A stretch of DNA of 64,000 bases from a virus, in the IMG/VR virus record IMGVR_UViG_2785510761_000001; one strand, written 5' to 3'. Below the pieces are notes generated by a model, which saw nothing but the letters and a program-made list of their open reading frames with translations, ran no database searches and had not been told where the DNA came from. Within the stretch, counting starts at the first letter, position 1, and each line of letters starts with the position of its first letter. This document shows, piece by piece, positions 6,507-52,607 of the stretch. Position numbers and translations under genes: made by a program.

Positions 6507-7703
6507 TTACGACCGCCTGCGCGCCTGCTCTCCAAGTTCCCGGTCGAGCAGCTCGCGCAGCCCACGCGTCTCGCGGATCTCTCCCAGGTCTTTCGACGCC
6601 TCAACGATCTCGTCGTGCGCCGCCTGCGCGTCGAGGCAGTACCCGCGGTCTGCGAGCATGCCGAGCTGCGGGAAGCGGTCTCGGGAGCGGCCATGCACCG
6701 CGAACGACGCTGCCTCTCGTGCGTCCTGCCGCAGACGGTCATCAAACGTGGTGGCTCCGCCCGCACCAGGGAAAAAGCCAGCGTTGATGTTCTTCCGGAT
6801 GTCCGTGTAGAAGTACGGGCTGCCATACGTGCCAGCGTCGGACTCGTTCACCCATTCGGTGAGCTTCGACTTCTCGTACAGCACATCACCAGCCATGGCT
6901 TCATTCACGTGGGTCTCTCCGCGCAGCTCGGCAGTGATGTCCATGCTGAGCACGTTGCCCTCGATGTGTGTGATGTCGGCGCCGTACCGCTCACTGATGG
7001 CGTCGCGAAGGTACAGCTCGCCGCGGTCGAACTGCTCTTGGGTGAGTCCGCCACCGGACACGGGATCTTCGACGAGTGAGGCGTACGCGTAGGCAGTGCC
7101 ACCAGCGGGGGAGCCGGAAACGCCAACTTCGTGCACCCTGAGGCTGTCAAAGCCGATCTCACGGCCGTCCCAGGTGAGGCTGCTCTCGTCCCCGTCGATA
7201 GGTTCGGCATCGATGTCCCACTGGTCGCTACGGATGTCAGCGAATGGGTCCTCAATCTCGACCCGCGTGTTCGGTGTGACCGTGGCTCCGGCCGAGTCGC
7301 CGATCGCCAGTGTGATGGAGCCGTCAGGGTTTCGGATCGTGCCAGTCACCTCGCCGGACACTCCGTTGATCTGTGCGGTGTCACCCACCTGCACGAACGC
7401 CGCTACCGTGTCCACAGTACCTCCGACACCGTTCACGGAGTACAGATTGGGCATTTCGCCCTGCAACTCCATGTCGCCATCACAGCTCAGGCACACCGGA
7501 GCTCCGACCTCATGCAGGTCAGTAGCCGGAACTGTTTCCTGGGTGCCGCAGCCACCACACGACCATGTAGTTGTTACTCCCGACGCGGTGTCAGATTGAG
7601 GGGGAGAGGTGCTGCTCCGGTCATGTGCCGCAAAACTTCCGCCGCTACCGCCTGCTGCTGTCTTCCCGAGGCCTTGATCCTGACGTCGCGTGATGTTGCT
7701 CAT
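6507..7703 (-). CDS. Hypothetical acidic protein with shared N-terminal tag and CxxC pair
   Basis: MSNITRRQDQGLGKTAAGGSGGSFAAHDR; CGGC...CLSC. Confidence 0.8.
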   Translation of the reverse strand: MSNITRRQDQGLGKTAAGGSGGSFAAHDRSSTSPPQSDTASGVTTTWSCGGCGTQETVPATDLHEVGAPVCLSCDGDMELQGEMPNLYSVNGVGGTVDTVAAFVQVGDTAQINGVSGEVTGTIRNPDGSITLAIGDSAGATVTPNTRVEIEDPFADIRSDQWDIDAEPIDGDESSLTWDGREIGFDSLRVHEVGVSGSPAGGTAYAYASLVEDPVSGGGLTQEQFDRGELYLRDAISERYGADITHIEGNVLSMDITAELRGETHVNEAMAGDVLYEKSKLTEWVNESDAGTYGSPYFYTDIRKNINAGFFPGAGGATTFDDRLRQDAREAASFAVHGRSRDRFPQLGMLADRGYCLDAQAAHDEIVEASKDLGEIRETRGLRELLDRELGEQARRRS

Positions 7704-7743
7704 GCACTCATTACGAGCGGCCGAGCTCGGGGGTTACATGCGC

Positions 7744-8637
7744 TCAGAGACCCAGGTGCCGATTCTGTCGCTCCAGCCACATCTGCCGCTCGTCGCTGCC
7801 CCATTCGCTCCACGCGAGAGGTCGCTTCACTCCGGACTCAGCGATTCTCCGCGTCATCTCGACGCGAGAGACGATCTCGCTCAGGTGACGGTCGGCTGTT
7901 GCGACATCCCCGCGGGACGTTGCTGACTCGAGGCCTTCCAAGCCCCATGCGACGAGACGGTTATCTTCGGCCTCTTCACGAAGCATCTGCAGGTTCACGT
8001 ACTGAAGGCGACCGCTGGCCCGCAGCGCATCGAGCGCGAGCTCTTCAGGGGCGCTGGCCGGCGTGACCAACACTTGGGGTTCGTCGTACTCCTGCTCTTC
8101 CGCGGCATAGATCGGGGTTCTGTTATCGACTGTGCGTTCGGGCATCGGCGGCCGGAACTCGTACCTGCCGGCGCAGCTATCACACATTGCCATGGTCTTC
8201 TGCTGGGGCACCCAGTACACCTTACGTCCGGTGCCGTCAGCGATCGCTTCGCTGCATCTCACGCACTTCCTGCGCTTATGGGCAGGAGCGCCACGATCCT
8301 CGAGCTGGGTGTGAAGACGGTCATGGTCGAACACCAGCTTGCAGATCTCGTCCGGCTCACCAGATGCTTTCCAGTAGGCCGCACTGGTTGTGGCCGCCCC
8401 AGGGATCGAACCCTTGGGGGATTCAAGCGCTTCGCGGTACCCAGGGATCACCTCAGCGAGGTGGAGGCGGGCAGCGTCCACCTGGGACGCGTCAGGGCTG
8501 CTGCTGGAATATCCGATGATCGTACGCTGCGCCGGCGGGGCACCGGCATCTCTGCTGTGAGCGGCGAAGCTGCCGGAACTTCCGCCGTTCGCCGTCGCGC
8601 CGAGGCCAAGGTTCTTGCGTCTCGTGTTGTTGCTCAT
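7744..8637 (-). CDS. Hypothetical protein with shared N-terminal tag and CxxC pair
   Basis: MSNNTRRKNLGLGATANGGSSGSFAAHSR; CVRC...CDSC. Confidence 0.8.
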   Translation of the reverse strand: MSNNTRRKNLGLGATANGGSSGSFAAHSRDAGAPPAQRTIIGYSSSSPDASQVDAARLHLAEVIPGYREALESPKGSIPGAATTSAAYWKASGEPDEICKLVFDHDRLHTQLEDRGAPAHKRRKCVRCSEAIADGTGRKVYWVPQQKTMAMCDSCAGRYEFRPPMPERTVDNRTPIYAAEEQEYDEPQVLVTPASAPEELALDALRASGRLQYVNLQMLREEAEDNRLVAWGLEGLESATSRGDVATADRHLSEIVSRVEMTRRIAESGVKRPLAWSEWGSDERQMWLERQNRHLGL

Positions 8638-11176: not shown

Positions 11177-11650
11177 CTAGGGAATGCGCGGCTGGAGTGC
11201 GTCGGGGAGGTCGTTGAGCGTGGCCTTTGGCATCCGGCTGAACGCCTCTGGCCACTGCCATGCGAGCCGAACGATTGCCGGAAGCACCGGAACGTCGTAG
11301 TAACGTTCCCTCGGCTCTTCGCTTGAGTAGAGGAGGGTCGCAATCTCCTGAGGGTCATCGGTCAGGTGAAACCCGCGCACATAGCCATCCGGGGCCGATC
11401 TCCACTTGCTGAGGTTCGGGCGCCCTTCAACATCCAGCGGATACCCGGCGTGAGTTTCTACGAACACGTGATCCCAACACCACTCCTCAAGCACCAGGCC
11501 CGGTTCGTCCTCTGGCCAGTACGCCGCAAACACCATCCGGAAGCCGAACATCCGATGAAGTGCTAGCGCGAGCACCCAGCAGTCGCCGTACAGGAACGCC
11601 TGACGTTCAACTTCGATGTCGCTCTGGCGAGTGCTCACCGTCGACATCAT
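11177..11650 (-). CDS. Hypothetical protein (GDCWVLALALH ... H motif)
   Basis: ATGA overlap with the ligase gene; 157 aa. Confidence 0.7.
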   Translation of the reverse strand: MMSTVSTRQSDIEVERQAFLYGDCWVLALALHRMFGFRMVFAAYWPEDEPGLVLEEWCWDHVFVETHAGYPLDVEGRPNLSKWRSAPDGYVRGFHLTDDPQEIATLLYSSEEPRERYYDVPVLPAIVRLAWQWPEAFSRMPKATLNDLPDALQPRIP

Positions 11651-13953
11651 GACCGCATGCTCTCTTCCCCATGTGCTTCGAACACGCGCGCGAGGTCAAG
11701 GCGGGGGCTTCCGTCTACCCCATCCACCGTAAACTCACCAAGGGTGATACGATCCCACACGCCGGTGGATCGCAAGTCGGCTTCCAGTCCTGAATGCCGC
11801 TGACCCAGCGTGTCCGCAGCGCCGCACCAGAACCGCTCGAGAACCCCGCGTGTTGCCTTGCGCTCAGCGTACAGGTTCGCCTTCAACTTGCTTCGGTACC
11901 CACTCGCGTCCACCAGCACGACACCCTCGTCCGACCGCCCAAGCGCGTCATCGAGAGCGTCAACAATCTCTTCGGGGGAGTGCAGGATTCGTTCGGCATC
12001 CGCGACCCCGAATCCGAAGCGTCGGGAGATGCCCCGCCGGATGCTCTCGTCCGTCTCGAACTTCACCACGTTGCGGATGCAGTCCAGTAGCACGAGCCTG
12101 TCACCGCCCGGCTCCGCGATCGGGTGAGTGTCGCGTGCTGCGATCACCTCGAATACGGCGGTCGTGTTTGTGCGCGAAAGCATGCCCGCGAGCGCGGCGG
12201 CGTTCATCACGTCACCCAGGTGGTTCACGAGCATCTGCTCTGCGAACTTCGAGTACGGGGTGATCCCGGACTTCGAGAACACCACGAGTTTGCCGCCTAC
12301 ACTGGCCACCAGCGCCAAGTACCCGTTGTACTTCTTGCGCACCTCGACCGGATATGCCGTGGTCAAGCGGTTCAACCAGTGCTCATGAGACCGGCCTGGG
12401 TCTTCACCGACGTGGAAGAATTTCTCGTACCCACGCGCCGCGATCTTCCCAGTTGCCTCGTTGATGAACAGACCGCGGGCGTGGACGGTCAGATCATCCC
12501 ACGAGCCCTTCCGGAACGCCTCACGGGTGAAGTTACAGGCCACAATGTCAGTGAGGCCCAATACTGGCTTCACCTTCACATGCTCTGACTCCCGCATGTG
12601 CGTGAGCAGATCAGTAGCGTCGGTCGGATCGAGGTTCTTCCTGACCCAAGGCCTCATGCGGTTGCGCGCAGCGGTGGAGGCGTCGACACGGTCGTTGAAG
12701 TGGTGGACAGAGTAATGCCCACTTGCGCTGAGCTCAGCAACGCTCACGCTGCCGCCAGCAGATGCCCCTGACTCCAGGCAGATGATGGGGTCACCATGCA
12801 CGTCATACGAGACCGTGTCGACAGGGCGGTCCTCCGGCTGGCTGTTGCGGTGGCCATGCAGCTGCCATCCAGCCAGCGGCATGTCTGCCACGTTGTAGCT
12901 GGTCTTGCCTCGGTACGTCTTCCCGCGGGTGCTTAGACCGTAGACACACTCGGCCTCAGCGATGTGTTCGGTCATCCCGTCCATGATCTTCTGACGCGTT
13001 CCCGCGCCCACGCCGCCATGCGTGACCAGCCAGTCTTCCCCTCCGATGTGCACCACCAGGTATGGCTGCGTGGCATCCACGAACGCGTTCTGCTCGCCGG
13101 CCATCACTCCGGCGCCGAGCAGCTTGTTACGAGTATCACGAGTGTCGGTGTGCCGGGATGTGGTGGTGTGATTGTTCACAGCGCGTAGGTGCTGCTCATG
13201 GTTGCCGGTAATGACAGTGCCACGACCCTCCGCCAACATCTTCTGGACGGTATTCCATACACCAACCGGGTCTGGGCCGCGGTCAAACAGGTCACCAGCG
13301 AACACCCAGTGCGGACGGTCGTCACCGTCGAACTCATCGACTATCCGGTCAAGTGCGTCGGAGCACGAATGCACGTCCCCGACGACGATTACGCGCCCCT
13401 GCGAAGTAAATTCTGGCACGCTGGTTGCGATGGCGATGCGCTGCTGAACAAAGGAAAGATCTGCAGTGCCGTCGATCACGCCGACGACATTTGGACTCAC
13501 CGGCTTCTGGGCGCAGCGCTCGTACATGCTCTCTAGTTCATCGGTATCGATGCGACTCGTACCTCGACCAGAGTTTCTGATCATCAGCTCGTCCAGCGTG
13601 ATTTCCCCCTGGCAGTCGATCAACCACGTTCGGTAGCCGTACTCCTTGGCGAGATTGATGATGTCGTTCTGATACTTCACCTGGGAGCTTGTCGCATCGA
13701 AGAATACGGTTGTCCCCGCTGCGAGTCGGGCCCTGAGTGCGGCGAGGGTTGCGGTTCTCGCAGCGAACTCCGCTTCATCGTTCAGTCGCAGTGTCTCGCC
13801 GAGAGATCCGTCCTTCTCGACGCATGGGAAAGCTACCGAGAACAGCTCACGAAACTGGTCGTACCCAACTGTCAGGTGTTCTACCTGAAGTGCTCGGATA
13901 AGTGAAGTCTTCCCGGTGCCGGGAGCTCCGCTAAGCAGAAACAGCGAACGCAT
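11647..13953 (-). CDS. Polynucleotide kinase / metallophosphoesterase / RNA ligase fusion (PNKP-Rnl RNA-repair type)
   Basis: GAPGTGKT P-loop; GDVHS, GDLFDRG, GNHE, THGG, HGH phosphoesterase motifs; ARGLF, YEKFF, KYNG, FEVI, EGVV ligase motifs. Confidence 0.88.
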   Translation of the reverse strand: MRSLFLLSGAPGTGKTSLIRALQVEHLTVGYDQFRELFSVAFPCVEKDGSLGETLRLNDEAEFAARTATLAALRARLAAGTTVFFDATSSQVKYQNDIINLAKEYGYRTWLIDCQGEITLDELMIRNSGRGTSRIDTDELESMYERCAQKPVSPNVVGVIDGTADLSFVQQRIAIATSVPEFTSQGRVIVVGDVHSCSDALDRIVDEFDGDDRPHWVFAGDLFDRGPDPVGVWNTVQKMLAEGRGTVITGNHEQHLRAVNNHTTTSRHTDTRDTRNKLLGAGVMAGEQNAFVDATQPYLVVHIGGEDWLVTHGGVGAGTRQKIMDGMTEHIAEAECVYGLSTRGKTYRGKTSYNVADMPLAGWQLHGHRNSQPEDRPVDTVSYDVHGDPIICLESGASAGGSVSVAELSASGHYSVHHFNDRVDASTAARNRMRPWVRKNLDPTDATDLLTHMRESEHVKVKPVLGLTDIVACNFTREAFRKGSWDDLTVHARGLFINEATGKIAARGYEKFFHVGEDPGRSHEHWLNRLTTAYPVEVRKKYNGYLALVASVGGKLVVFSKSGITPYSKFAEQMLVNHLGDVMNAAALAGMLSRTNTTAVFEVIAARDTHPIAEPGGDRLVLLDCIRNVVKFETDESIRRGISRRFGFGVADAERILHSPEEIVDALDDALGRSDEGVVLVDASGYRSKLKANLYAERKATRGVLERFWCGAADTLGQRHSGLEADLRSTGVWDRITLGEFTVDGVDGSPRLDLARVFEAHGEESMRS

Positions 13954-14008
13954 GGTGTGTCCTTTCAATGGCGCATCATGCGCCGACACACTGGCAATGC
14001 GCGGCCGT

Positions 14009-14347
14009 TCACCGCCCGAATTCGACAGCCAGGTGGGTGAGCATCGCCTCCGCGGCCTCCCACTCCTCCTGGCTGAGGGCGGGATGGTCAACATCGTGCA
14101 CAGGGACGATCAAGCTGCACACAACAGCGCGGGCGTGAGCGGATGGAATTTCCGCCAGGCGGTCTGCGCCGTCGGTGAGAGTCTCGATCAGGCGTTCGGC
14201 CGCAGTGAACTGTTCGGCAGTCCAGCAATACACTCCGCCGGCGTGAACATCGTCGACCTGTGCGAGAAGTGCGTTATGAATAACGAGTCGGTCGGCAGCG
14301 CTAAGCGCCGTCGGTTCGGCGAGCCCCGGAATCGTCAACGAACCCAT
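14009..14347 (-). CDS. Hypothetical protein
   Basis: 112-aa ORF overlapping the stop of the upstream gene. Confidence 0.6.
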   Translation of the reverse strand: MGSLTIPGLAEPTALSAADRLVIHNALLAQVDDVHAGGVYCWTAEQFTAAERLIETLTDGADRLAEIPSAHARAVVCSLIVPVHDVDHPALSQEEWEAAEAMLTHLAVEFGR

Positions 14348-25204: not shown

Positions 25205-25732
25205 CTATGTGTCCTGCCCTGGGGTAGTAGTCGTCGTCATCTCCACCTGAACCCCTGCCATCTCGAACAGGCGCTCTGATGCCTTGGTGAGGCCGACCGC
25301 TGATAGATAAGGACGCGCGACAATGACCCGCCGCACACCCACCTGGATAAGTTCCTTGGCACATTCGTTGCACGGATAGTGAGTGACATACGCAGTTGAG
25401 CCGGCCAGCTCTCGCAAAATTCCTCGGAAGTTCAACACGGCGTTGCGCTCCGCATGGATCACGAACGGGTATTTCGTATTTAGCGGATCTTCATCATCTC
25501 TGCCCCACGGCATCTGGGTGTCATCCACCCCGTTCGGCATCCCGTTGTAGCCGAGCGACAGCACTCGGTTATCTGACGAAACAAGCACCGCCCCAGTCTG
25601 AGTGTTCGGGTCCTTCGATCGTTGCCTCACGGTCTCAGCGATCTGCATGAAGGTCTCACCCCAGGACAACGGTGTGCGCGGCAAGTCCCTTGGGCGCTCA
25701 TGCCGCTCCTCGGCAAGCTTCTCAGTGCTCAC
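25205..25732 (-). CDS. dCMP deaminase (ComEB-like)
   Basis: RSKDPNTQTGA, LGYNG, HAERNA, PCNECAK. Confidence 0.9.
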   Translation of the reverse strand: MSTEKLAEERHERPRDLPRTPLSWGETFMQIAETVRQRSKDPNTQTGAVLVSSDNRVLSLGYNGMPNGVDDTQMPWGRDDEDPLNTKYPFVIHAERNAVLNFRGILRELAGSTAYVTHYPCNECAKELIQVGVRRVIVARPYLSAVGLTKASERLFEMAGVQVEMTTTTTPGQDT

Positions 25733-26550
25733 CTCGACTCCTCTACTTTCTCGCTGATCTCAGCCTTCGTGGGACGGGTGAAGAACCCGAAAGACGTGTC
25801 GGTGTCGGATGGCTTGACGGTTGCAGTGAACTTTATCTCGCGGCCGATCAGAGCCCCCGTCCAGACACCGATCCCGTCATCCGCGGGGTCATTACCGTCG
25901 GCGCTGTAGAACGCGTAGTACTCGCTGTCGGCGATACTCTTAGGCACCGAGCCCCAGACTTTCCAGCCTTCACCCTCAACCAGCATCTTCAGGGTGGAGC
26001 CGAAGTCGGAATCGACGTACTTTGCGCTGCGGATGGTGCCGACGATCTCAAGCCGCCCTGACGGTGCTGGACGCTTTGCTGCTTCGCGCTCATCGAACGC
26101 TACAAGAATCTCCCGCAGCTCGGTTTCCCAGGCTGCCGCGTCGAACTCAACGGGGTCGCCGCCAATAGCATCGAGGTTCCAACTCAGCTTGCGATGGAAC
26201 GGGTCTCCGTCACTGAGCCCGTCCAGCACGGCTTTCGCTCGGTCGACAAGCTCGCCGTACTTCGCACGGAACTGCTCTTCGCGCTCTCGCGCCGCCTCGA
26301 TCCGTGTCTGTCGTTCCAGGGCTTCGCGAGCGTGCCGGCGCGCTTTCGCCCGAGCGCTCGAGACGAGGAATGAATGTTCGCCGGTGCCCATGCAGTCGAA
26401 GCATCCGGTCGTGACGAACCCCACGGTCTTCGTGTGGAAGCTCGCGTTGGATGACGCATCGTAGACGCCCGTTCCGTGGCATTTCCCGCACGTTTCAGAG
26501 ATGCGTTCCTTGCCTTTGCGGCCGGGGTACGGATCCACATATTCGCTCAT
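25729..26550 (-). CDS. Zn-finger (CxxCxGxG x2) protein with possible C-terminal OB-fold
   Basis: CGKCHGTG..CFDCMGTG; SDFGSTLKMLV..GWKVWGSVP; motif at 26585-26593. Confidence 0.65.
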   Translation of the reverse strand: MSEYVDPYPGRKGKERISETCGKCHGTGVYDASSNASFHTKTVGFVTTGCFDCMGTGEHSFLVSSARAKARRHAREALERQTRIEAAREREEQFRAKYGELVDRAKAVLDGLSDGDPFHRKLSWNLDAIGGDPVEFDAAAWETELREILVAFDEREAAKRPAPSGRLEIVGTIRSAKYVDSDFGSTLKMLVEGEGWKVWGSVPKSIADSEYYAFYSADGNDPADDGIGVWTGALIGREIKFTATVKPSDTDTSFGFFTRPTKAEISEKVEESR

Positions 26551-26594
26551 CGCGCCGCCTCCTCAGGTGTGTTGATGTGGAGGCAATGCGCGGC

Positions 26595-27965
26595 CTACGG
26601 GGAGGGAGGCGGGGAGGATGGTCGCTGATGAGTGGTGAAACTCCCACCGTTTCCGCCCGCAGCTGTCTTGTCTAAGCCGCGGTCTTTTCGACGATCCTGT
26701 CCATTGCTGACGCGAGAGATCGGAATATGGGTGGAGGCTCGATCCGATCGTTCAGGGAGACCAGCAGCGCGTTCGGCAGTGCGGAGCAGCAACTCCATTT
26801 CCCTCGGGTGAGTTTGAGCCATTTTAGTGCGAGCCAGGGTCTCTTCCACGTGATCCAAGAATTTTAAGTTCACGTCCTGCACGATCCCGAGCACCCGATC
26901 TACATCCAGCGAGGACTTCCTGCTCAGCCTGACCCAATCGCCTGCCGCCACCCCTTTTGCGTAGCGCTGGTTTCCGACTCGCATTCCGAGCTTCTGTTCG
27001 TATCCGGGCATCAGGGCGATTGGAACTGTGTCGTAAATCGGGGAGAGCGTTACACCGTCTTCTTGGTGCATCAGCGTGTAATTCTTCGCGTGTGCGTCAG
27101 CGTTCCCGATGGTGATGTTGAATGCCAGCTGCTCAATGAAGTCATAGCGGACGTTCTCATCGACCCCGTACTTTCGAAGGAGCCCAATGGTTCGCTGTGC
27201 GCCCACGACGTACTTCTCTTCGGGAGAGAAACCCAGTGCCTGCGCAACGTCCTCCGTGTGCAACCGCACCACAGCCCCGCCGTCGGTCTCCGCCCGATCA
27301 AACCTCTTGGTCATGAAGGCAGTCTGCCCATGGAAGACAGCGACCCGGGATTCTGCAGCGCTGATGCCCATGCGCTGCGCAAGATCGAGAGACGCTGCTT
27401 CAACCTCATCCAGGCCGGGGTGGTCAGTTCGTGCAGGCTTCACAATATGGGTAGAAGGTGTGGCGGCATCTGGCCAAAAGCATTCACCGCGGTCAATTGT
27501 CAGTGCGAATTTCCCTTGAGCTCCCGCCAGTGAGAATCTTGGTGGGGCACTGAAATCACCGAGGCCCGAGCCTCCTCGCTTAATCTCCGTGATCCTGGCG
27601 CTAATTTCCGATTCCTGAGCGAGCTCGGTGAAGTCTTCCCCGCGACCCGGTTGAGTCTCCTGGGTCGTCAGCAGTACACCGCCGGGGAGGTCGGCGTTGG
27701 CTGCGCTGAGCAGATCCCACGATTCGGTGCTGCGTGCGTGAGTCAGTTCACGCATGTTCTCTTTCGCTCCGGGATCCTCAGGGATGAGGCCGTCGAGGAA
27801 GTTTTGCGGGGACTTCTTCGTGAGCGGGCCGTCGTAAGGCAGCGACAGTGACAGGTGTCGCCTAGAGCCCTGGTCATACACGAAGGTTGCTCGGTGTGCT
27901 GGTGAGACTTTCTCGAACACACCAACGTGCTCATCGCCGATCCACGCGTGTAGATACTCAGGCAT
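26595..27965 (-). CDS. hipA: HipA-family Ser/Thr kinase toxin with C-terminal copy of the shared tag
   Basis: LSLSLP and FLDGLIPE (N-terminal couple domain), SLAGAQGK, HIVKP, KRFDR, GNADAHAKNY, LSPIYD. Confidence 0.9.
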   Translation of the reverse strand: MPEYLHAWIGDEHVGVFEKVSPAHRATFVYDQGSRRHLSLSLPYDGPLTKKSPQNFLDGLIPEDPGAKENMRELTHARSTESWDLLSAANADLPGGVLLTTQETQPGRGEDFTELAQESEISARITEIKRGGSGLGDFSAPPRFSLAGAQGKFALTIDRGECFWPDAATPSTHIVKPARTDHPGLDEVEAASLDLAQRMGISAAESRVAVFHGQTAFMTKRFDRAETDGGAVVRLHTEDVAQALGFSPEEKYVVGAQRTIGLLRKYGVDENVRYDFIEQLAFNITIGNADAHAKNYTLMHQEDGVTLSPIYDTVPIALMPGYEQKLGMRVGNQRYAKGVAAGDWVRLSRKSSLDVDRVLGIVQDVNLKFLDHVEETLARTKMAQTHPREMELLLRTAERAAGLPERSDRASTHIPISRVSNGQDRRKDRGLDKTAAGGNGGSFTTHQRPSSPPPSP

Positions 27966-28590
27966 GAGCACTCCTTTCAGTACGAACGTGAACTGCAGGG
28001 ATGCGTAGTGTCTTCACGATCCGTGCGACGTCGCGGTTACCGCGGGGGGAGTAGCCGGTGCGCTCGATCGTGTGTATCACAGAGGTTGGAACATCCGTAC
28101 GTTCGGCCAGCTCGCCGGCGGACACGCCTCGGATAGCTCGCCAATCGGAAATGCGGCCACGAACACTATCCGGGGAGTCCAGAACCCACATCCCCATGTG
28201 CTTCTGAGCATCACGCACCTGCTGGTCGAACCCGCGTAGAGCGGCCCTTACAACTGCGGCGCCACCTCTACCTTCCGGAGCGGATCCGGCCCACCAGTCT
28301 CGCAACAGGGCCACAGGGTCTGGCGAGTCGATGAACTCTCGAATGCGAGCTGCCGCTCGAGCTTTACGCACCCCAGTGATCCCATCGAATGTCTTATGAT
28401 TCATCCATCGAAGCACATCGGAGCGTGACTGCTCAGACAACCGGCGACGGGAACGGCGAACGATGAAGGCTGTTTCATCCACCTCCCACACCCCGGACAC
28501 TTTTCTCGCGGGGATGCGCCCCTCTCGAGCAAGCCTGGCTGCGCGTTGGACAGTGATTCCCTCTGATCGTGCAAACTCAGAAATCTTCAT
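27958..28590 (-). CDS. Double-HTH protein (excisionase-like N-terminus, Xre-like C-terminus); probable HipA antitoxin/regulator
   Basis: MKISEFARSEGITVQRAARLAREGRIPARK; RAIRGVSAGELAERTDVPTSVIHTIERTG; directly upstream of hipA. Confidence 0.7.
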   Translation of the reverse strand: MKISEFARSEGITVQRAARLAREGRIPARKVSGVWEVDETAFIVRRSRRRLSEQSRSDVLRWMNHKTFDGITGVRKARAAARIREFIDSPDPVALLRDWWAGSAPEGRGGAAVVRAALRGFDQQVRDAQKHMGMWVLDSPDSVRGRISDWRAIRGVSAGELAERTDVPTSVIHTIERTGYSPRGNRDVARIVKTLRIPAVHVRTERSAHA

Positions 28591-28705
28591 AACACAAGCG
28601 TTTCACGCTGGCCTAAGAAACACAAGTGTTATGGGGCGCGAGGTGCCGTGCGTTGCCCATAGGGCGGGGGAGTGGTAGGTGTTCTGAACGCACTCTTACC
28701 TCTGG

Positions 28706-29812
28706 TCAGCAGATACTGATCGGTGATCCAGCGGGCCGCGGCGCCATGCGCGGAAACGCTTTCGAAGTGGCGAGTGCCTCCACAAGCATCTGGACGTTGA
28801 GTGCGTATAGGCCAGCGTTCAGCAGACTGTTGAGCTCGACGACGAGCGGGACATCGTTTGAGCCCAGCGCAACATCGAGCACATAGCTCCTGTTCTCCGG
28901 CTCCTCCTCCCGCACCTTGCGCGCGACCATGCGTCCGAACTCCACCAGACGCTCCACCACATCAGGCCGTTCGACGATGGCATGTCTCTGGTCGCGCACA
29001 CGCTGCACGCGTGGGTCGAATTGAAGCCCTGTGCTGTTGAGTGGCGTGAAGTCCACGATGCACCCCGCGCCTACAGCGACTTCATGATCCACCACGAACA
29101 AGCGGTACTCGTAGTGCATGGGCACCGCGCTCTGCACGAGGTAGGCATCACGGGTAGCTGCGAAGTGGTACGTCAGCCATTCTCCGCCATCGCCGAAGCA
29201 GTTGTCGAACGCTTCCCACAGCTCGGCGTCACTGAGGCTTGCGATCTGGTGGATGTACCCGATGCCCGCGGTCTTATCCTTGGCGACAATTTTGACGGCG
29301 GCACTGTCGCCGGCGGCCCGGAGCGCTTCGACCACGTCGGCGCGGTCGATTGGCCCACCGTCTCCCTGCTCTAGGGCTGAGCAGAGTCTTACAAACCGTC
29401 CAGCGTGATCCTTGAACGCAGTCAAGCGGGAGTACCCCTGACGGTTCACGTAACTCGCCATCTCAGGTTCAGGGTCGGTGGTGGGGATAGGTCCCCATAT
29501 GTGCGCACCAGCCAGGTCACTGAGCAGGCGATCCTCACCGGTGCCCACGTTCACTGCGCGCTCATTGTTCCAGCCGCCATATTTCGGTTGGCCGAGCTGC
29601 CGCACCCAGAGCCGTTCGCGCGGCCAGCAGGCGAATGCTTTCTCCATGCGCAGCGCATCTTCCACGAACAGGTCGAAGTCGTCTGTGCCTTCTTCCCGAA
29701 CGTTGGGTACCCACTGCTTGACGAGGGAGATGAGCCTGTCGAGCTCCGGCGTGCGTTCCGCAAAGATCGGGATGGGGTGGCCTGAGCTCACCACGAGATG
29801 GTTTTCGTACAT
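28706..29812 (-). CDS. ATP-grasp domain protein (R2K-like)
   Basis: YLVQSAVPMHYEYRLFVV, YVLDVAL, VVELNS..AGLY. Confidence 0.6.
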   Translation of the reverse strand: MYENHLVVSSGHPIPIFAERTPELDRLISLVKQWVPNVREEGTDDFDLFVEDALRMEKAFACWPRERLWVRQLGQPKYGGWNNERAVNVGTGEDRLLSDLAGAHIWGPIPTTDPEPEMASYVNRQGYSRLTAFKDHAGRFVRLCSALEQGDGGPIDRADVVEALRAAGDSAAVKIVAKDKTAGIGYIHQIASLSDAELWEAFDNCFGDGGEWLTYHFAATRDAYLVQSAVPMHYEYRLFVVDHEVAVGAGCIVDFTPLNSTGLQFDPRVQRVRDQRHAIVERPDVVERLVEFGRMVARKVREEEPENRSYVLDVALGSNDVPLVVELNSLLNAGLYALNVQMLVEALATSKAFPRMAPRPAGSPISIC

Positions 29813-30479: not shown

Positions 30480-31223
30480 CTACCCGTTGAAATCAGGATT
30501 CCTGTCGTAGGTGATGAGGCGTTGTGACTGAGGCTTCGAACGGCAGTCGCCTCGAGTGCAGATGTAGCTGCGTGTGCGGGGCATCCCGTCACGGTAGCTG
30601 GTGTGGGACTGATCGTTTGGGCATGTGCCACGGTATCTACGCATGACGTGCACCGGTGCAGCCAGTTCAGCGGCCGTGCTCTGGTGGTTCATCCGAACCT
30701 CGACGTCACTCATGCCGTGCCGGTTCAGCAAGGTGCGGAACTTCTCCCGCCAGCCTTTACTGTGGCCGCTGTGCTTATCGTCAATGCCGTGCGCGACTTC
30801 ATGCAGGATGGTGTCCGCGATAGTACGTGGCTCTTTGGTGCGCAGCTGTGGGGCGCTGAGCTCGATGAGGTTCTCATTCAGCGATGGGTCGACTCGGCAG
30901 GTGACCTGCTTGTTCCAGGCCAAGGAGGTGTTGCTCTGCATCCACCTCCCGAAGGTGAGGGCCGTGCCAAATGGTGGGTGCCTTGCTTCGGGCGTGCAAC
31001 GGATGATCTCGATGGTCGCCTGTTCGATGACTTCCTTGCGCTGAGACCAAGGCGTGGCGAACCAGGATTCTGGGTCTGTGTCGAGAAGCCGGCTGAAATT
31101 CGGGGTGATCAGTACCGGCGCCGGGGGAGCTCCCGCCTCCCGGCTGTGGCTTGCGAAACTGCCACCTGATCCGCCTCCTGCGGTCTTTCCGAGTCCGAGG
31201 TCCTGTCTGCGGGAGCCAATCAT
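30480..31223 (-). CDS. SprT-like zinc metalloprotease with shared N-terminal tag
   Basis: TILHEVAHG..GHSKGWREKF; C-terminal Cys cluster; starts MIGSRRQDLGLGKT. Confidence 0.82.
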   Translation of the reverse strand: MIGSRRQDLGLGKTAGGGSGGSFASHSREAGAPPAPVLITPNFSRLLDTDPESWFATPWSQRKEVIEQATIEIIRCTPEARHPPFGTALTFGRWMQSNTSLAWNKQVTCRVDPSLNENLIELSAPQLRTKEPRTIADTILHEVAHGIDDKHSGHSKGWREKFRTLLNRHGMSDVEVRMNHQSTAAELAAPVHVMRRYRGTCPNDQSHTSYRDGMPRTRSYICTRGDCRSKPQSQRLITYDRNPDFNG

Positions 31224-31245
31224 GCTCACTATTACGGGCGGCACA

Positions 31246-31283: not shown

Positions 31284-32426
31284 TCAGAACTCGTCGTCCC
31301 TGAAGAAGAGCTCGCGAACTTTCCTGCTCAGCGCCGTATAGTCTTCCTCCACACTTTCCGTGAGCTGCGTAAAGTCTACGCGCTGGCGACCGTCATCGCC
31401 GTTATGGATCGCGTGCGGGGCGTGCTCCTGAATCCCGCGCTTGAGGCTGCTGAACGCCTCATGATGCACCTGATAGTCATCTCGCTGATCGTAAGGGATG
31501 TCGTGCGGCCTGGTGTATTCACCTATGCGCGCCGCTGCTTTCGGGTGAGACCACGGGCGGTCCTTCGCCACCGTGATCGGCTGCAGCGCCTCGATGCGCT
31601 GAATGGACTCGGTGTCGCCGCGGCCGCGCGCGGTTTTGAGGGCGTGCGTCTTCGCGGCCTCGAACTCGTCGAGTGTGAATACGTTGTCGGCGCGGATCAG
31701 GCCGCTGTCATCATCTGCCGCGGCGCGAACGGGCTTATTGTCGATCGAGAATCCAGTGCCTCCGTGATTTCCTCCCATGCCGTAGATGTTGACCATGTAC
31801 ACCGGCTCTTCGGTTTTCCGCCAGAGCTCACCGTCGACGACGAGGTACCCATCAACCTCCGCCTGCACCATGTCGCGCGCGCCGGCTTCGCTGTCGTTGC
31901 CCTCCCGCTGATAGGGCTGAGTGACATGGACGAGCTCACCGGTCTCGTAGTCACGCTCGAAACGTGTGAGACGTTCACGGATACGCTCCGGGGTAGCTTC
32001 CAGCCGGTCCGATTTGTTCGGGTACGGCGGCTCCATAGTCGTGTTCGTGTACGACCAGATGTCGCCGGCGACCATCGGCCGGTACAGCTCACCGTCATAG
32101 TGCCGGACCTCGAACTCCAAGTCTCCGGAGCCACCGATGAACTCGTGGAACGTGAATGCCTCGCCTGTGTCTTCGCGGCTGACGCTTCGCACTTCAGCGT
32201 CCATCTCAAAGGTGCGCTCCACGTCTCGAGGGTTGCGGTGACGTGGCGTAGGAAGCACATCACGCTCCGTCCAGCGAACCGTGAACGGCTCGCTGATCAC
32301 CACGTCTGGCGCCGCCGATGACGGGGGCGGTGCGGCCGCGCCGCGCTCATGGCTCGCGAAGCTTCCACCAGAGCCGCCTTTCGCGGTCTTGCCGAGGCCA
32401 AGGTCTTGTCTGCGTGTGCTGCTCAT
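31284..32426 (-). CDS. Hypothetical acidic protein with shared N-terminal tag
   Basis: MSSTRRQDLGLGKTAKGGSGGSFASHER. Confidence 0.82.
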   Translation of the reverse strand: MSSTRRQDLGLGKTAKGGSGGSFASHERGAAAPPPSSAAPDVVISEPFTVRWTERDVLPTPRHRNPRDVERTFEMDAEVRSVSREDTGEAFTFHEFIGGSGDLEFEVRHYDGELYRPMVAGDIWSYTNTTMEPPYPNKSDRLEATPERIRERLTRFERDYETGELVHVTQPYQREGNDSEAGARDMVQAEVDGYLVVDGELWRKTEEPVYMVNIYGMGGNHGGTGFSIDNKPVRAAADDDSGLIRADNVFTLDEFEAAKTHALKTARGRGDTESIQRIEALQPITVAKDRPWSHPKAAARIGEYTRPHDIPYDQRDDYQVHHEAFSSLKRGIQEHAPHAIHNGDDGRQRVDFTQLTESVEEDYTALSRKVRELFFRDDEF

Positions 32427-32456
32427 ACCGCGAATTACGTGCGGCGCGCGTTCACC

Positions 32457-32568: not shown

Positions 32569-33345
32569 CTATCCAATGTATTGAGGGTTTCGGGCGTAGC
32601 TGATGAGGCGTTCGGCCTGCGGGACGCCGCGGCAGGCGCCCTGCGTGCAAATGTACATACGGCTGCGCGGCATGCCGTCACGATAACTGATGTGGGTGGG
32701 ATCCCTCTGGCAGGTGCCGACGATCTTCCGCACCATGCGAGCGGCGTGCTCACGGTCGGTGTCCCAGTGAATCTGCTCTACTTTCCGTTCAGTCATCCCA
32801 TGCCGGTCGAGCAACATGCGGTGCTTTTTCGCCCACCGGTCTCCGTGCCCGCCGCCCCAGTCGTCGATGCCGTGCGCGACCTCGTGCAAGATGGTGTTCG
32901 CGATGGTCTGAGGCTCTCTCGTGCGTAACTGAGATGCGTTCATCTGAACAGTGTTTTCGTTCAACTCAGGCTGGGTCAGGTGCCTTCGTTTCGCATTCCG
33001 AGCCAGTGCGCTGCCCAGAGGCTTCCATTCACCGAAAGTGAGCGGTGTTCCGAAAGGCGTGTCCTGAGCTTCTGGGGTAGCGGCGATGATCTCTCGTGTC
33101 GCCCGCTCTACGATCTTCTTGCGCTCAGCCCATGGAGTGTTCATCCACTGCTCTGGGTCTGCCCTCATGATCTGCGCGAAGTTCGGAACCTGGCTCAAGT
33201 AGTTGGCATTCTGCAGCAGGTTTTCTTCAGTCTCAATGGCCGGGGGAGGCGCGGCCGCGGCCCTTCTGTGTGATGCGAAGCTCCCCCCAGAGCCCCCTCC
33301 GGCGGTCTTCCCGAGGCCGATGTCCTGTCGGCGGATATTAATCAT
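32569..33345 (-). CDS. SprT-like zinc metalloprotease paralog with shared N-terminal tag
   Basis: TILHEVAHG..GHGDRWAKK; starts MINIRRQDIGLGKT. Confidence 0.82.
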   Translation of the reverse strand: MINIRRQDIGLGKTAGGGSGGSFASHRRAAAAPPPAIETEENLLQNANYLSQVPNFAQIMRADPEQWMNTPWAERKKIVERATREIIAATPEAQDTPFGTPLTFGEWKPLGSALARNAKRRHLTQPELNENTVQMNASQLRTREPQTIANTILHEVAHGIDDWGGGHGDRWAKKHRMLLDRHGMTERKVEQIHWDTDREHAARMVRKIVGTCQRDPTHISYRDGMPRSRMYICTQGACRGVPQAERLISYARNPQYIG

Positions 33346-33375
33346 GTCGCGGATTACTTGCGGCACTGGTTGCAT

Positions 33376-49751: not shown

Positions 49752-52607
49752 ATGCGAAATCCCTTCCAAGCCAAGGTCTTTTCTTTCCGCAAAACGGGCA
49801 GTCCGGTGGTGTCGAGCGCAGAGTTTGTGCAGCGTTCAGCCTCTGTGATCCCGAACATCCCGAGCGGTGCGACGTTTATTGCGCGCCGCACTGAGCGTGG
49901 GCTCGAGCATTTGCTGGTCACGGACGACGATCCGGGCCAGGTGGGTGCTGCGTTCGCGGTCGCGCAGGCTGTGCACGCCGAGTCTGTGGAGCTAGAGGAG
50001 GCACCTGACCTGGGTGAGGCGAGTGAAATTGCTCGCCTGTTCTACGGCCGCCGATCGCAGATGTCGATGGCCACCGCGGCGGGCGTTGAGGTGACGACCA
50101 TCGCTGAAATCATCGGGCACACATTGCAGATGGGTGACTGGGTGGCGGTCAGTGTTCGGCGCCCGTACCGGCGTGAGCCGAAGGTGTGGAAGCGTTGGCT
50201 GACGAGCGGGCTGGGAGTGATGACGAACCCGACTATCGCTCCTGGGCAGCAGGTCGCTCAGATTTGGGCGGGGTCGGATCACGGTAACGCTGGGGCGAAC
50301 GCCCGCGCCATCGCTGGCGCGTTCCCTGGCTTCGGAGTGCAGCCGCAAGCCGCGCGTGTGACTGGCATGAAAGAGCTCCGCCGGTCGTGGGCCGTGGCAG
50401 GTGCTCTGCTCACCGTCGGGCTGCTGGCGCGGTTCGTGTCCGCGAGGTACACGGGCATCCCGTATGTCGATCTGAATGGCTGGGTGATAGGGGCTGGGGC
50501 GGCGCTGTCCGTGTACTCGCTGCTCGCGGCCGGGGTGATCCCGGGATTCATTTTGCCTGGCCCTTGGAAGCGCCTGCGGAGGCAGCTGTCGTGGGGTCGC
50601 GTGCCAGTCGCGCCGCGGAAGTATGACCCAGTGAAGGCACCGACTCCGGCGACAACTGACCGGGAGACCGGAGCCATGATTCCAGCAACTGAGGGTGAGT
50701 ATCCGCTTGCTCGCACCGCGTTCGCTGTCGCACCGCACTACGCTCTGTCCATCGTCATCCCGCACGCTGGCGCGTTCTCAAACGTCGGCGCAACCGCGCA
50801 GCGTTCAGCTCCGCCGGCGCTCACCGTTCCGGCTGTCGGCCCGCAGATCGGAGTCAGCGACGATGCTCCAGCGTTCCTCAGCTGGACGGATCTCTGGGCG
50901 GGCACGTTCCTGATCGGCCGTCCCGGCTCCGGCAAGACGGCGCTCATGGAATGGGTGTGGGGCGAAAGCTGCAAGCAAGTGGCAAGTGGGAAGCAGCTCA
51001 CTCCCGTCGCGTTCGACACTAAGGGTGATGGCGAGTTCGCGAAGCAGCTCAGCGCGTGGGGTGCTGAGCACGGATCTGCGGTGCGCGAGTTTCATGTTGC
51101 AGATCGTTCCGCCGGCGTATCGATCGACCTGTTCCCCAGCACCGGTGACGCGTACTCGCAGGCGCGCAGGATCGTTGACACGTTCGTGTACTTGTACGGT
51201 GAAGTCAGCGTAGGTGCACGCTCGAAGGACACGTTGAGCCGGGTGTTCCAGGCCGCGCTCGCGATGACCCCTGATGTGGTGGATGGGCTGGCGATGAACG
51301 GCCAGGGAGACATTCGCATCCAGGCCGGCAAGTCACCGTTCTACTACGCCAACGTGCTGCTCGGCGGGCTCGGCGATGCTCCGGGTGTGATGCTTGCGGA
51401 TCGCATCTCCGCTGTGGCTTCGACAGAAGGTGCAACGCAGGAGATCGTCGATGCGAGCCAGGGGCTTGCCCCTCTGTACGGCGGCGGGGCGACACCCGCG
51501 AAGCGCCGTGACCTGGTGGAAGCCCCCCGCAACAAGGTGAGCGCGCTGCTCGGCATGGAGCACTGGTGGAGCGCACCGAACAAGGTGAGCTGGCGCGACC
51601 TGCTGCACAGCCACGAACCGGTGGTCGTAAACACTGGCGTCGCTCCGAACGGCGACCAGCCCAGCGATCAGCAGATCGTCGAGGACATGGGTTCACTGCT
51701 CCTGTACTCGTTGAAGCTGGCGATTCAGGAGCACTGCCGAGGTTGGCAAGCCCAGGAGCGCGCTGTGCGCATTTTCTCTGACGAGGTGAAAGCAGTCGCC
51801 GCTGCAAGCCCTGAGGTCGTGAAGTGGATGCGATCGGACGGGCGCGCGTTCGGTGTGGAAGCGATCTTCGCAACGCAGCAGCCTCGCCAGCTCCCCATCG
51901 AGGTGCGGCAAGAAGTAATGACGTTCGGCAACCTCATCGCTTTCACGCAGAACGACCCCGCGACCGCCAGGGAGATCGCGGATGACCTGTCGCTGGACGG
52001 GTCTGAATGGGAGCCACAGGACGTGGCCACACTACCGAAATTCCACGCCATCGTACGCGCCACGTTCGAGCAGAACCGTCAGGCACCGTTCACCGCGGAG
52101 GTGCCAGATTTTCGGGCGAAGCGCATGGCTGTACTGGCACCTGCCGGGCAGCCTGAAACGGCTACCGCCGGTGTAGCCTTCGCCGACATTTCCGGTGTTG
52201 GGACGCTGACCGTGGCGGTGCCATCACGCTGGGAGCAGGTGCAGATGCCCGGTCGCCTCATCGGCATGCAGGAGGCAGACGAGAACTCGTACCGCGCGAA
52301 CCTCAGCGTGACTGCAGCACCAGAAAGCGTGCTCTCCCCAGTGCAGATCCCGGGAGAGCTGAAACGTCAATTCTCCGGGATCCCAGGGTTTGAGCTGACC
52401 GGTCTGAACCGTCTCATGTTCGGCAGCCACGCTGGTTGCTTCATTTCAGGGTCAGCACCTTCGGAATCGGGCGAGCGGCTCTGGTACGCGGCAGCGTCAG
52501 TCATCATCAACGGTGTACGCGTTGACATGATCGGAGCCGCCCTCGAATCTGACGCTGTTCAATGTGCAGCACTGACTGAAGTCTTTGAGAGCGTCGAACT
52601 CGGATGA
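49752..52607 (+). CDS. VirD4/TraD-like type IV coupling ATPase with N-terminal TMs and C-terminal extension
   Basis: GRPGSGKT Walker A, VRIFSDE Walker B, GRAFGV..IFATQ..QL, FGNLIAF. Confidence 0.8.
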   Translation: MRNPFQAKVFSFRKTGSPVVSSAEFVQRSASVIPNIPSGATFIARRTERGLEHLLVTDDDPGQVGAAFAVAQAVHAESVELEEAPDLGEASEIARLFYGRRSQMSMATAAGVEVTTIAEIIGHTLQMGDWVAVSVRRPYRREPKVWKRWLTSGLGVMTNPTIAPGQQVAQIWAGSDHGNAGANARAIAGAFPGFGVQPQAARVTGMKELRRSWAVAGALLTVGLLARFVSARYTGIPYVDLNGWVIGAGAALSVYSLLAAGVIPGFILPGPWKRLRRQLSWGRVPVAPRKYDPVKAPTPATTDRETGAMIPATEGEYPLARTAFAVAPHYALSIVIPHAGAFSNVGATAQRSAPPALTVPAVGPQIGVSDDAPAFLSWTDLWAGTFLIGRPGSGKTALMEWVWGESCKQVASGKQLTPVAFDTKGDGEFAKQLSAWGAEHGSAVREFHVADRSAGVSIDLFPSTGDAYSQARRIVDTFVYLYGEVSVGARSKDTLSRVFQAALAMTPDVVDGLAMNGQGDIRIQAGKSPFYYANVLLGGLGDAPGVMLADRISAVASTEGATQEIVDASQGLAPLYGGGATPAKRRDLVEAPRNKVSALLGMEHWWSAPNKVSWRDLLHSHEPVVVNTGVAPNGDQPSDQQIVEDMGSLLLYSLKLAIQEHCRGWQAQERAVRIFSDEVKAVAAASPEVVKWMRSDGRAFGVEAIFATQQPRQLPIEVRQEVMTFGNLIAFTQNDPATAREIADDLSLDGSEWEPQDVATLPKFHAIVRATFEQNRQAPFTAEVPDFRAKRMAVLAPAGQPETATAGVAFADISGVGTLTVAVPSRWEQVQMPGRLIGMQEADENSYRANLSVTAAPESVLSPVQIPGELKRQFSGIPGFELTGLNRLMFGSHAGCFISGSAPSESGERLWYAAASVIINGVRVDMIGAALESDAVQCAALTEVFESVELG

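Follow-up and report, generated by a model that had tools for sequence, protein, structure and literature searches.

The window, a 64-kb stretch of DNA belonging to a megaplasmid-like element of approximately 451 kb, encodes on its minus strand a HipA-family kinase toxin whose C-terminus carries a short peptide that is also found at the N-termini of five other proteins in the window. The features at the toxin locus are the following:

26585..26593, minus strand: promoter-like motif CCGCGCATT, beginning 2 nt past the hipA stop
26595..27965, minus strand: hipA, HipA-family Ser/Thr kinase toxin, 456 aa from the ATG at 27965
26598..26693, minus strand: C-terminal address tag of HipA (RRKDRGLDKTAAGGNGGSF..H.R...PPP), which aligns with the five N-terminal tags
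26694..26765, minus strand: HipA linker of about 24 residues from core to tag, over which the pLDDT drops from 71 to below 50
26766..27965, minus strand: HipA kinase core, residues 1–400, predicted by AlphaFold2 to be folded with pLDDT mostly above 90
27958..28590, minus strand: putative antitoxin, an untagged two-HTH protein of 210 aa whose stop overlaps the hipA start

The open frame of hipA extends to a GTG at 27971 (ORF 26595–27971, minus strand). The likely start is the ATG at 27965: an AGGAG precedes it by 6 nt, and the first 8 nt of hipA counted from this ATG overlap the end of the preceding gene. The resulting protein equals in length P0001, a HipA relative that is also 456 aa long and 98% identical to the window HipA. 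Two Pfam domains were matched above their gathering scores, HipA_C (PF07804, E 2.3e-45) and the N-terminal Couple_hipA (PF13657, E 1.4e-9). Residues 7–341 align with the structures of E. coli HipA, with the P-loop (SLAGAQGKF), the catalytic loop (GNADAHAKNY), and the Mg-binding YD motif (IYD) all matching their E. coli counterparts, and D290, H292, N295, and D312 show no variation across 54 homologs. The AlphaFold2 model (54 homologs) has a mean pLDDT of 85.8 and places the last helix at residues 387–400. These features indicate that the kinase core is intact. The hallmark of the HipA family is growth arrest through phosphorylation of a tRNA synthetase, which is neutralised by the partner protein.

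The candidate antitoxin has an excisionase/MerR-like HTH of the mad1 type at residues 1–39 and an HTH_31 domain at residues 150–201, and it aligns along its entire length, at 32% identity, with the 200-aa partner protein of a different HipA. A first-pass annotation of this DNA had described this double-HTH partner as untagged, and a search for the tag in every frame of the 27958–28590 gene gave no match. Together, hipA and the 210-aa gene make up an ordinary two-gene module of the HipBA type, such as Leucobacter-type chromosomes carry. The module resembles E. coli HipBA (2wiu, 3tpd, 3dnt) in its two-domain kinase with P-loop, catalytic loop, and YD motif, and in an upstream HTH partner with overlapping stop and start. 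It differs in that the 440-aa HipA of E. coli lacks a tail of this kind and in that the partner here is a two-HTH protein rather than HipB, which is an 88-aa protein in E. coli.

Beyond the core, HipA continues for 56 residues that AlphaFold2 predicts to be disordered; residues 415–456 have pLDDT values below 50 and no secondary structure. The tag core (RR...PP) occupies residues 425–456, about 32 residues, and is followed by the stop codon at 26595–26597. Against an independent profile built from 27 tag-bearing protein clusters, the tail scored 48.6–53 bits, while 1400 composition-matched shuffles reached 10 bits at most; by this measure, the resemblance of the tail to the address tag exceeds chance. 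The first-pass annotation had reported a HipA kinase with a disordered tail that ends in the tag at 26595–26700, and this account stands on each point: the domain matches and motifs identify the kinase, the tail runs into the tag peptide and then the stop within the reported region, and the disorder holds as a prediction.

To establish whether the tail was an extension of an ordinary HipA, as the same annotation had proposed, we aligned the protein with its homologs and found the tail to be absent from its closest relatives. The nearest HipAs (Leucobacter-type, 403–411 aa) have no tail, and untagged homologs of 400–411 aa terminate at the end of the kinase core. In the tree, the window HipA and P0001 lie inside a clade of untagged 403–411-aa HipAs with 100% support, and 94 of the 121 homologs are without any tail. 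A group of 434-aa chromosomal HipAs (P0069) has a tail of its own in which the tag motif is absent. The 'GGQF...DPE' tails of P0050, P0032, P0042, P0115, and P0109 were considered as distant dialects of the tag and rejected, with scores of 2.6–7 bits that fall within or near the shuffle range. The HipA tail is very probably a real, selected copy of the tag and an add-on to the kinase.

The five other copies of the tag in the window start at 7703, 8637, 31223, 32426, and 33345, each aligned at the N-terminus of its protein:

6507..7703, minus strand: N-tagged ORF of 398 aa, no known family
7744..8637, minus strand: N-tagged ORF of 297 aa, no known family
30480..31223, minus strand: N-tagged SprT-like zinc protease of 247 aa (P0121)
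31284..32426, minus strand: N-tagged ORF of 380 aa, DUF8359
32569..33345, minus strand: N-tagged SprT-like zinc protease of 258 aa

The six tags have the consensus RR.D.GLGKTA.GG.GGSF..H.R...PP and share 15 invariant residues. Close comparison of their codons revealed that multiple codons are used at 15/15 of these residues (both CGN and AGA encode Arg, and both AGY and TCN encode Ser), and that the identities at the first, second, and third codon positions are 0.70, 0.80, and 0.37. This pattern indicates that the tag is selected as a peptide and not as DNA. Every N-tagged gene in the window has a GCCGC.CGTAAT box 6–7 nt upstream of its ATG, and the same box (in frame ..AARN..) lies just before the start of the N-tagged genes in two other tag clusters, L015 and L018. 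Since the N-terminal copies are always accompanied by this promoter box and a leaderless start, the repeat might be thought of as a DNA- or RNA-level element, such as a promoter, a translation enhancer, or a mobile repeat, that is incidentally read in frame. This explanation is scarcely credible and is effectively refuted by the codon analysis: codon positions one and two are conserved, third positions are near-random, and the copies differ in which synonymous codon family they use. The copies on HipA and on two further toxins described below, moreover, lie at the 3' ends of their genes, where no in-register promoter box is present, and neither an Rfam match nor a terminator was found. Its occurrence at both protein ends together with its conservation at the peptide level leaves the tag no role as a promoter or in translation initiation, the latter in agreement with the earlier reading of the sequence. 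The promoter-like motif CCGCGCATT downstream of hipA serves the next gene, which is untagged (25729–26550); it is an element-wide motif with 26 copies in the window and is enriched in related contigs too.

As a peptide, the tag is basic and rich in Gly, and a single aromatic residue is conserved in it. It appears to act regardless of position, in the manner of a short linear motif in which an RR anchor is followed by a Gly-rich spacer and then by an aromatic anchor. Pfam searches of the tail and the tag returned no family at E ≤ 10, including no BID domain or other recognised secretion signal, and a disordered peptide of 32 residues is not a BID fold. A Sec or Tat signal peptide was rejected, given that the maximal 12-residue hydropathy in the tags is only −0.08 to 0.71 and that the tag also occurs C-terminally. 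The tag is reminiscent of encapsulin cargo-loading peptides in being a short Gly/Leu-rich terminal peptide with a Pro/Ala-rich linker that occurs at either end of unrelated cargo. This candidate was also discarded: the shell protein expected alongside such cargo (Linocin_M18 / HK97 fold) did not turn up, with no PF04454 or PF05065 match on a related Curtobacterium plasmid and no PF04454 match in two Leucobacter genomes, and the motif differs from the encapsulin cargo-loading consensus.

The tag is rare outside the window. We found 27 tag-bearing clusters among 1.84 billion public proteins, 25 of them with the tag at the N-terminus behind its own promoter and leaderless start, and the full tag in 2 of 401 Microbacteriaceae genomes. 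A search of species-representative genomes returned one locus, a search of JGI metagenomes and IMG/VR gave nothing confirmable, and tblastn with the tag against plasmids gave no match, probably owing to low-complexity masking. The related Curtobacterium plasmid, D40, carries 16 matches to a tag dialect of its own (15 N-terminal), with forms such as ..RDGKFAEKHH.., and the window and Curtobacterium dialects recognise each other as profiles.

Among the C-terminal bearers, P0141 is a HipA only 23% identical to that of the window, with a full tag at residues 422–454, and its gene adjoins that of a 112-aa HTH protein. In Leucobacter exalbidus, an AbiEii-like toxin (nucleotidyltransferase) ends in a linker of about 55 aa plus the tag, both of which its homologs of 215–262 aa do not have. 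The HipA tails of P0112 and P0058 scored 15.1 and 14.2 bits against the Curtobacterium dialect, for which 1 of 1400 shuffles reached 13.1 bits, and probably represent similar C-terminal fusions. The tag thus seems to have been gained repeatedly by toxins, in two unrelated HipA lineages and in an AbiEii-like nucleotidyltransferase. Three of the four clear C-terminal tags are borne by toxins of toxin-antitoxin pairs; the fourth is on a 95-aa orphan protein of the Curtobacterium plasmid that is not visibly a toxin. The end that carries the tag follows operon position. All three C-tagged toxins (HipA, P0141, and the AbiEii-like protein) are second genes that overlap an untagged upstream HTH gene, and hipA, being translationally coupled to its antitoxin gene, cannot accept the cassette of promoter, leaderless ATG, and tag, so the tag lies at the opposite end.

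These comparisons bear on whether the tag on HipA has any function. A deletion could have joined hipA, at its 3' end, with the 5' end of an N-tagged gene lying downstream, in which case the tag would be a functionless relic. The end of the linker (..VSNGQD, before RR) does echo the MSN.. start of the N-terminal tags, and among the six copies that of HipA diverges most (G8D, S15N, and A20T). Selection on that copy cannot be measured either, as there are zero substitutions within the tag between the window HipA and P0001. However, all 15 invariant residues and the PP linker are retained and the protein ends two residues later; independent C-terminal fusions occur on the 23%-identical HipA, the AbiEii-like toxin, and probably P0058 and P0112; and the concentration of clear C-terminal tags on toxins would not be expected of random fusions. 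We therefore regard a relic as improbable.

One gene of a transfer type is located 22 kb from hipA, the sole recognisable transfer gene in the window:

49752..52607, plus strand: coupling-protein-like ATPase of 951 aa with matches to plasmid coupling proteins, a candidate reader of the tag

Topology prediction gives this protein a soluble N-domain and two membrane helices at about residues 205–270, and its Walker A motif lies at 389–396. The 8 matches listed of 16 are 31–35% identical to it over 69–85% of its length. These eight are annotated as 'type IV secretory system conjugative DNA transfer family protein' and come from megaplasmids of Curtobacterium, Arthrobacter, Pseudarthrobacter, and Paenarthrobacter, with Bifidobacterium plasmid records also among the 16. 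A weak match to TraD was also obtained, and no Pfam family at E ≤ 0.01. Within the 64-kb window, no VirB4, relaxase, or oriT was identified; a VirB4-type AAA_10 match is present on the related Curtobacterium plasmid. PLSDB classes the related plasmids as non-mobilizable, and the machinery could accordingly even pump DNA without offering a channel for proteins. The window also has phage-like gene content (a Pnkp-type RNA ligase, dCMP deaminase, dNMP kinase, NAMPT, and RNase H). A phage origin was rejected, as no phage or plasmid nucleotide match was found and the matches of the 951-aa protein are plasmid coupling proteins, with no phage protein among them.

Known systems offer precedents for transfer. 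Different toxin families of toxin-antitoxin pairs have repeatedly acquired a C-terminal type IV secretion signal, and VbhT is moved by a conjugative system (PMC5675462). Like VbhT of the VbhT/VbhA pair on plasmid pVbh of Bartonella schoenbuchensis (Harms et al. 2017, PMC5675462), the window HipA is the toxin of a plasmid toxin-antitoxin pair with a C-terminal extension missing in its nearest relatives; as in the VbhT-type BID fusions, the antitoxin is untagged and the fusions arose independently in several toxin families. In contrast, the BID domain of VbhT is a folded domain of about 100 residues from Proteobacteria and C-terminal, whereas the tag is a disordered peptide of about 32 residues from Actinobacteria with no Pfam match and is N-terminal on most of its bearers; and transfer, proven for VbhT, is a proposal for the window HipA. 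A second precedent is HipT (Lpg2370) of the Legionella pneumophila HipBST system, also a HipA-family kinase toxin and a type IV substrate, translocated by Dot/Icm (PMC9325769). The window HipA matches the HipT structure 8ezr with E 6e-13. HipT, however, is a split, short kinase that is delivered into eukaryotic cells at low efficiency, and no shared terminal tag has been described for it. The zincin protease domain proteins ArdC and TraC1 are transferred in conjugation (PMC5512222, Iyer et al. 2017), and the tagged SprT-like proteins are HExxH zinc metalloproteases of the same general kind.

The toxin of the module has acquired a C-terminal copy of the disordered address peptide of its element family, and this would make HipA a client of the reader that it shares with the N-tagged proteins. 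The most likely reader would be the DNA-transfer machinery of the element, through the coupling-protein-like ATPase. A recipient cell in a mating would then receive the kinase but not the antitoxin, which is untagged, and the kinase would block translation there until the incoming element makes the antitoxin. Tag-driven transfer of HipA is plausible in our view, though we hold it tentatively. [quoted passage not shown] The arrest or killing of recipients is something we purely infer. It should also be mentioned that known type IV signals are C-terminal or internal; with 25 of 27 clusters tagged at the N-terminus, this one would be out of the ordinary.

An observation that speaks against the transfer reading comes from the tagged AbiEii-like toxin, which is located on a chromosomal island: no transfer genes were found within approximately 20 kb of it, and a search of that genome with the 951-aa query turned up no ATPase homolog. 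A tagged toxin in a genome with no detected coupling-protein homolog would fit a conserved host factor that reads the tag as a degron or as a docking site for a chaperone or protease, restricting how long early plasmid proteins last or determining where they go; for HipA, this would mean a short-lived or conditionally active toxin. Such a factor would also suit a tag that is disordered and terminal, like degrons, and the dedicated promoter variant and leaderless starts of the N-tagged genes are appropriate for a burst of expression followed by removal. Yet the tag is unlike any known actinobacterial degron, and classical addiction requires a stable toxin. The rarity of the full tag in the genome and protein searches also disfavours a conserved factor, and its restriction to one element family, with dialects per plasmid family, fits better with a co-evolving reader encoded by the element. 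We consider a host factor rather unlikely.

The tag could alternatively serve in intracellular docking with no export, its partner being the incoming DNA or relaxosome, an element-encoded chaperone, or a processing protease. The basic, Gly-rich character of the peptide and its conserved aromatic residue are consistent with this, as is the presence of two SprT-like zincins, proteases of a DNA-activated type, in the tagged set; polyvalent proteins of mobile elements are also thought to be processed by zincin peptidases (PMC5512222). Against docking, no candidate partner shows conserved linkage. The R2K ATP-grasp gene that adjoins hipA was examined as one and rejected, being absent from L015 and L018. 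It is also hard to see what use a translation-blocking kinase would have for docking of this sort. We think it improbable that docking explains the tag, and we favour transfer of the tagged toxin.

What is new here is the use of the tag at the C-terminus of toxins of toxin-antitoxin pairs. To our knowledge, next to nothing is known of protein substrate choice by the conjugative systems of Gram-positive and actinobacterial hosts, and a short, portable, sequence-defined tag would give a direct handle on that choice. Should toxins be co-transferred while their antitoxins stay behind, conjugation in these bacteria would have coercion of the recipient built in, and the finding made with VbhT in Bartonella would be extended to a second phylum and a different type of signal. 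Were the reader a host factor instead, the repeated acquisition of the peptide by unrelated plasmid proteins and toxins would still flag a hub worth identifying.

The HipA-family kinase lies downstream of an untagged gene encoding a 210-aa protein with two HTH motifs, its putative antitoxin (27958-28590, minus):

26595-27971, minus strand, HipA-family kinase ORF (Pfam HipA_C, E 2e-45; Couple_hipA, E 1e-9)

The start codon is probably the ATG at 27965, which stands 6 nt past an AGGAG; it overlaps the TGA stop of the preceding gene in the arrangement ATGCCTGA. This start gives a protein of 456 aa, the same length as P0001, an equally tagged HipA with 98% identity obtained in an independent sequencing run. 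Residues 7-341 align with the E. coli HipA structures, and the P-loop, the catalytic loop, and the Mg-binding YD motif are present, with their residues invariant among the 54 homologs compared. In the AlphaFold2 model built on a 54-homolog alignment, residues 1-400 are confident, with pLDDT mostly >90, while residues 415-456 are modeled with pLDDT <50 and without secondary structure, in agreement with the disordered tail described in the first-pass annotation. The sequence also confirmed its reading of the C-terminus, RRKDRGLDKTAAGGNGGSF..H.R...PPPSP followed by the stop codon, as a copy of the tag.

The same peptide of approximately 32 residues opens five ORFs on the same strand, with the true starts at 7703, 8637, 31223, 32426, and 33345. 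Fifteen positions are invariant over the six copies, and more than one codon is used at all 15 of them (CGN and AGA for Arg, AGY and TCN for Ser), with pairwise identities of 0.70, 0.80, and 0.37 at codon positions 1, 2, and 3, respectively, indicating that selection acts on the peptide and not on DNA or RNA. Neither an Rfam family nor a terminator was found in the tag region. When a profile of the six copies was searched against 1.84 billion representative proteins, 27 clusters were matched, in which the tag is N-terminal in 25 and C-terminal in two. Against the profile rebuilt from these clusters, the HipA tail scored 48.6-53 bits, compared with a maximum of 10 bits among 1400 composition-matched shuffles. 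The tag has no hydrophobic core, matched no Pfam family, occurs in full in 2 of the 401 Microbacteriaceae genomes searched and, as far as we could find, was undescribed until now.

The suspicion that the tail is an add-on was borne out by comparison with homologs: in 94 of 121, the C-terminus lies at most a few residues from the last core helix, and in the kinase-core tree the window HipA and P0001 are nested in a fully supported clade of untagged proteins of 403-411 aa. Another HipA, P0141 (23% identity), which is overlapped by a preceding 112-aa HTH gene, carries the full tag at residues 422-454, and the tree requires at least two gains of the tag. The tails of two further HipAs, P0112 and P0058, which adjoin untagged relatives in the tree, match the Curtobacterium dialect (a plasmid-family-specific version of the tag) with 15.1 and 14.2 bits, scores reached by no more than 1 of 1400 shuffles. 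P0144, the second of the two clusters with a C-terminal tag, falls within an ORF of 329 aa in the Leucobacter exalbidus chromosome; the homologs of this ORF are AbiEii-type nucleotidyltransferases (PF08843) of 215-262 aa ending approximately 55 residues earlier:

L019:1456-2445 (near 665 kb of the Leucobacter exalbidus chromosome), minus strand, AbiEii-like toxin with an added C-terminal tag

As publicly annotated, P0144 (208 aa) begins at an internal codon of this open frame. The start of the toxin gene is overlapped by an excisionase-type HTH gene, and the locus belongs to a small chromosomal island (G+C 61% vs 66%) beside Fic and SUKH-family genes. Clear C-terminal tags are thus borne by three toxins from two-gene toxin-antitoxin modules: the window HipA, P0141, and the AbiEii-like protein. 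A fourth is encoded on D40, a plasmid from a cultured Curtobacterium; this plasmid has 16 matches to its own tag form, ..RRKD.PG.P..AGLSGGAFA..EH..DD..L, 15 of them N-terminal and the sole exception being an orphan:

L044:3397-3684 (D40 370896-371183), 95-aa orphan with a C-terminal Curtobacterium-dialect tag

The D40-dialect profile recognizes every Leucobacter tag, those of HipA, P0141, and the AbiEii-like toxin among them. The dialects vary from one plasmid family to another, which would fit a reader evolving together with the element.

Each N-tagged window gene has a box ending 6-7 nt ahead of the ATG and no Shine-Dalgarno sequence, an arrangement that, judged from sequence, points to leaderless transcription from a promoter of the gene's own:

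7704-7725, 8638-8660, 31224-31245, 32427-32448, and 33346-33368, minus strand, GCCGC.CGTAAT-type boxes upstream of the five N-tagged ATGs

The same box (in-frame ..AARN..) immediately precedes the start of the N-tagged genes in the related contigs L015 and L018, and the Curtobacterium dialect genes share the box and start layout. From this layout, the tag usually moves together with promoter and start codon, as one cassette. All three toxins with the tag are second genes, their starts overlapping the antitoxin gene, and so cannot take up the cassette; their tag stands at the opposite end. The residues preceding RR in the HipA tail (..VSN...) resemble the MSN.. opening of the N-tags, which suggests that the tail may derive from the cassette via fusion; that it is a functionless relic of a fusion is improbable in our estimate. 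A 12-nt direct repeat, AAC(A/G)CTTGTGTT, occurs twice, 28 nt apart, at 28591-28630 (minus), its second copy abutting the ATG of the 210-aa HTH gene. The repeat pair may be the operator of a hipBA-like operon, and the HTH gene may be leaderless as well.

A phage identity of the window was rejected, despite many phage-like nucleotide-metabolism genes. The window encodes a coupling-protein-like ATPase:

49752-52607, plus strand, 951-aa ATPase with homology to plasmid type IV coupling proteins

This protein is 31-35% identical to annotated type IV coupling proteins across 69-85% of its length and also matches TraD weakly. Its homologs reside on 375-608-kb plasmids of Curtobacterium, Arthrobacter, Pseudarthrobacter, and Paenarthrobacter, and Bifidobacterium records also match. 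Its layout is unusual, with a soluble N-domain of ~200 aa ahead of two membrane helices, and its C-terminal domain of ~160 aa is absent from the Curtobacterium homolog. Neither VirB4 nor a relaxase was recognized within the window; the related Curtobacterium plasmid D40 gives a single VirB4-type match (AAA_10) and is typed non-mobilizable by PLSDB. One window protein is also on record on a 450,962-bp contig. The host is probably Leucobacter, since the closest HipA lacking the tag is from this genus, as is the single tag locus detected in species-representative genomes. Tag clusters and an element-wide motif, CCGCGCATT, are common to the related contigs L001, L015, L017, and L018. The motif, which looks like an element-specific promoter element, has 26 copies on both strands of the window (e.g., 26585-26593, minus) and is enriched in L015, L017, and L018, with no such enrichment in DNA of Leucobacter chromosomes. 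A gene for a possible peptide ligase lies between the hipBA-like pair and the tagged cluster; it is kept in L001, and the tag clusters of both L015 and L018 lack it:

28706-29812, minus strand, R2K-clade ATP-grasp gene

An 815-aa protein (11647-14094, minus) combining a P-loop kinase, a calcineurin-like phosphatase, and a T4-type RNA ligase is a predicted Pnkp-like RNA repair enzyme, possibly countering tRNA-cleaving defences. A 901-aa protein (ORF 40899-43604, minus), with three tandem 225-nt repeats at 41121-41743 (60-77% identical) and matches to InlB B-repeat-type domains, is a predicted surface protein built of repeats.

[quoted passage not shown] The HipA-family kinase HipT of Legionella is a Dot/Icm substrate (PMC9325769), and conjugation also transfers ArdC and TraC1, two proteins with zincin protease domains (PMC5512222). 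Like ArdC and TraC1, two tagged window proteins are zinc metalloproteases, of the SprT-like type, and the window HipA resembles VbhT-type toxins in its add-on tail, independent gains, untagged antitoxin, and plasmid context. These are precedents for the first-pass proposal that the tag, if it drives transfer, would bring the kinase into a recipient without its antitoxin. That interpretation is partly supported, and co-transfer of the tagged HipA through the conjugation machine ranks first among the readings, as a tentative one. Against it, signals of this kind are, to our knowledge, never N-terminal, the transfer machinery is barely defined, and no transfer genes were found near the chromosomal tagged AbiEii-like toxin, nor the ATPase in that genome. 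A host factor or degron pathway reading the tag is ranked second and is unlikely, followed by the fusion relic and, just as improbable as the relic, docking to another partner of the element. The findings as a whole point to an address peptide whose function does not depend on position and through which unrelated proteins become clients of a single reader. The window HipA would be the toxin of a toxin-antitoxin pair that has been given an address tail, carried by a presumably conjugative element.
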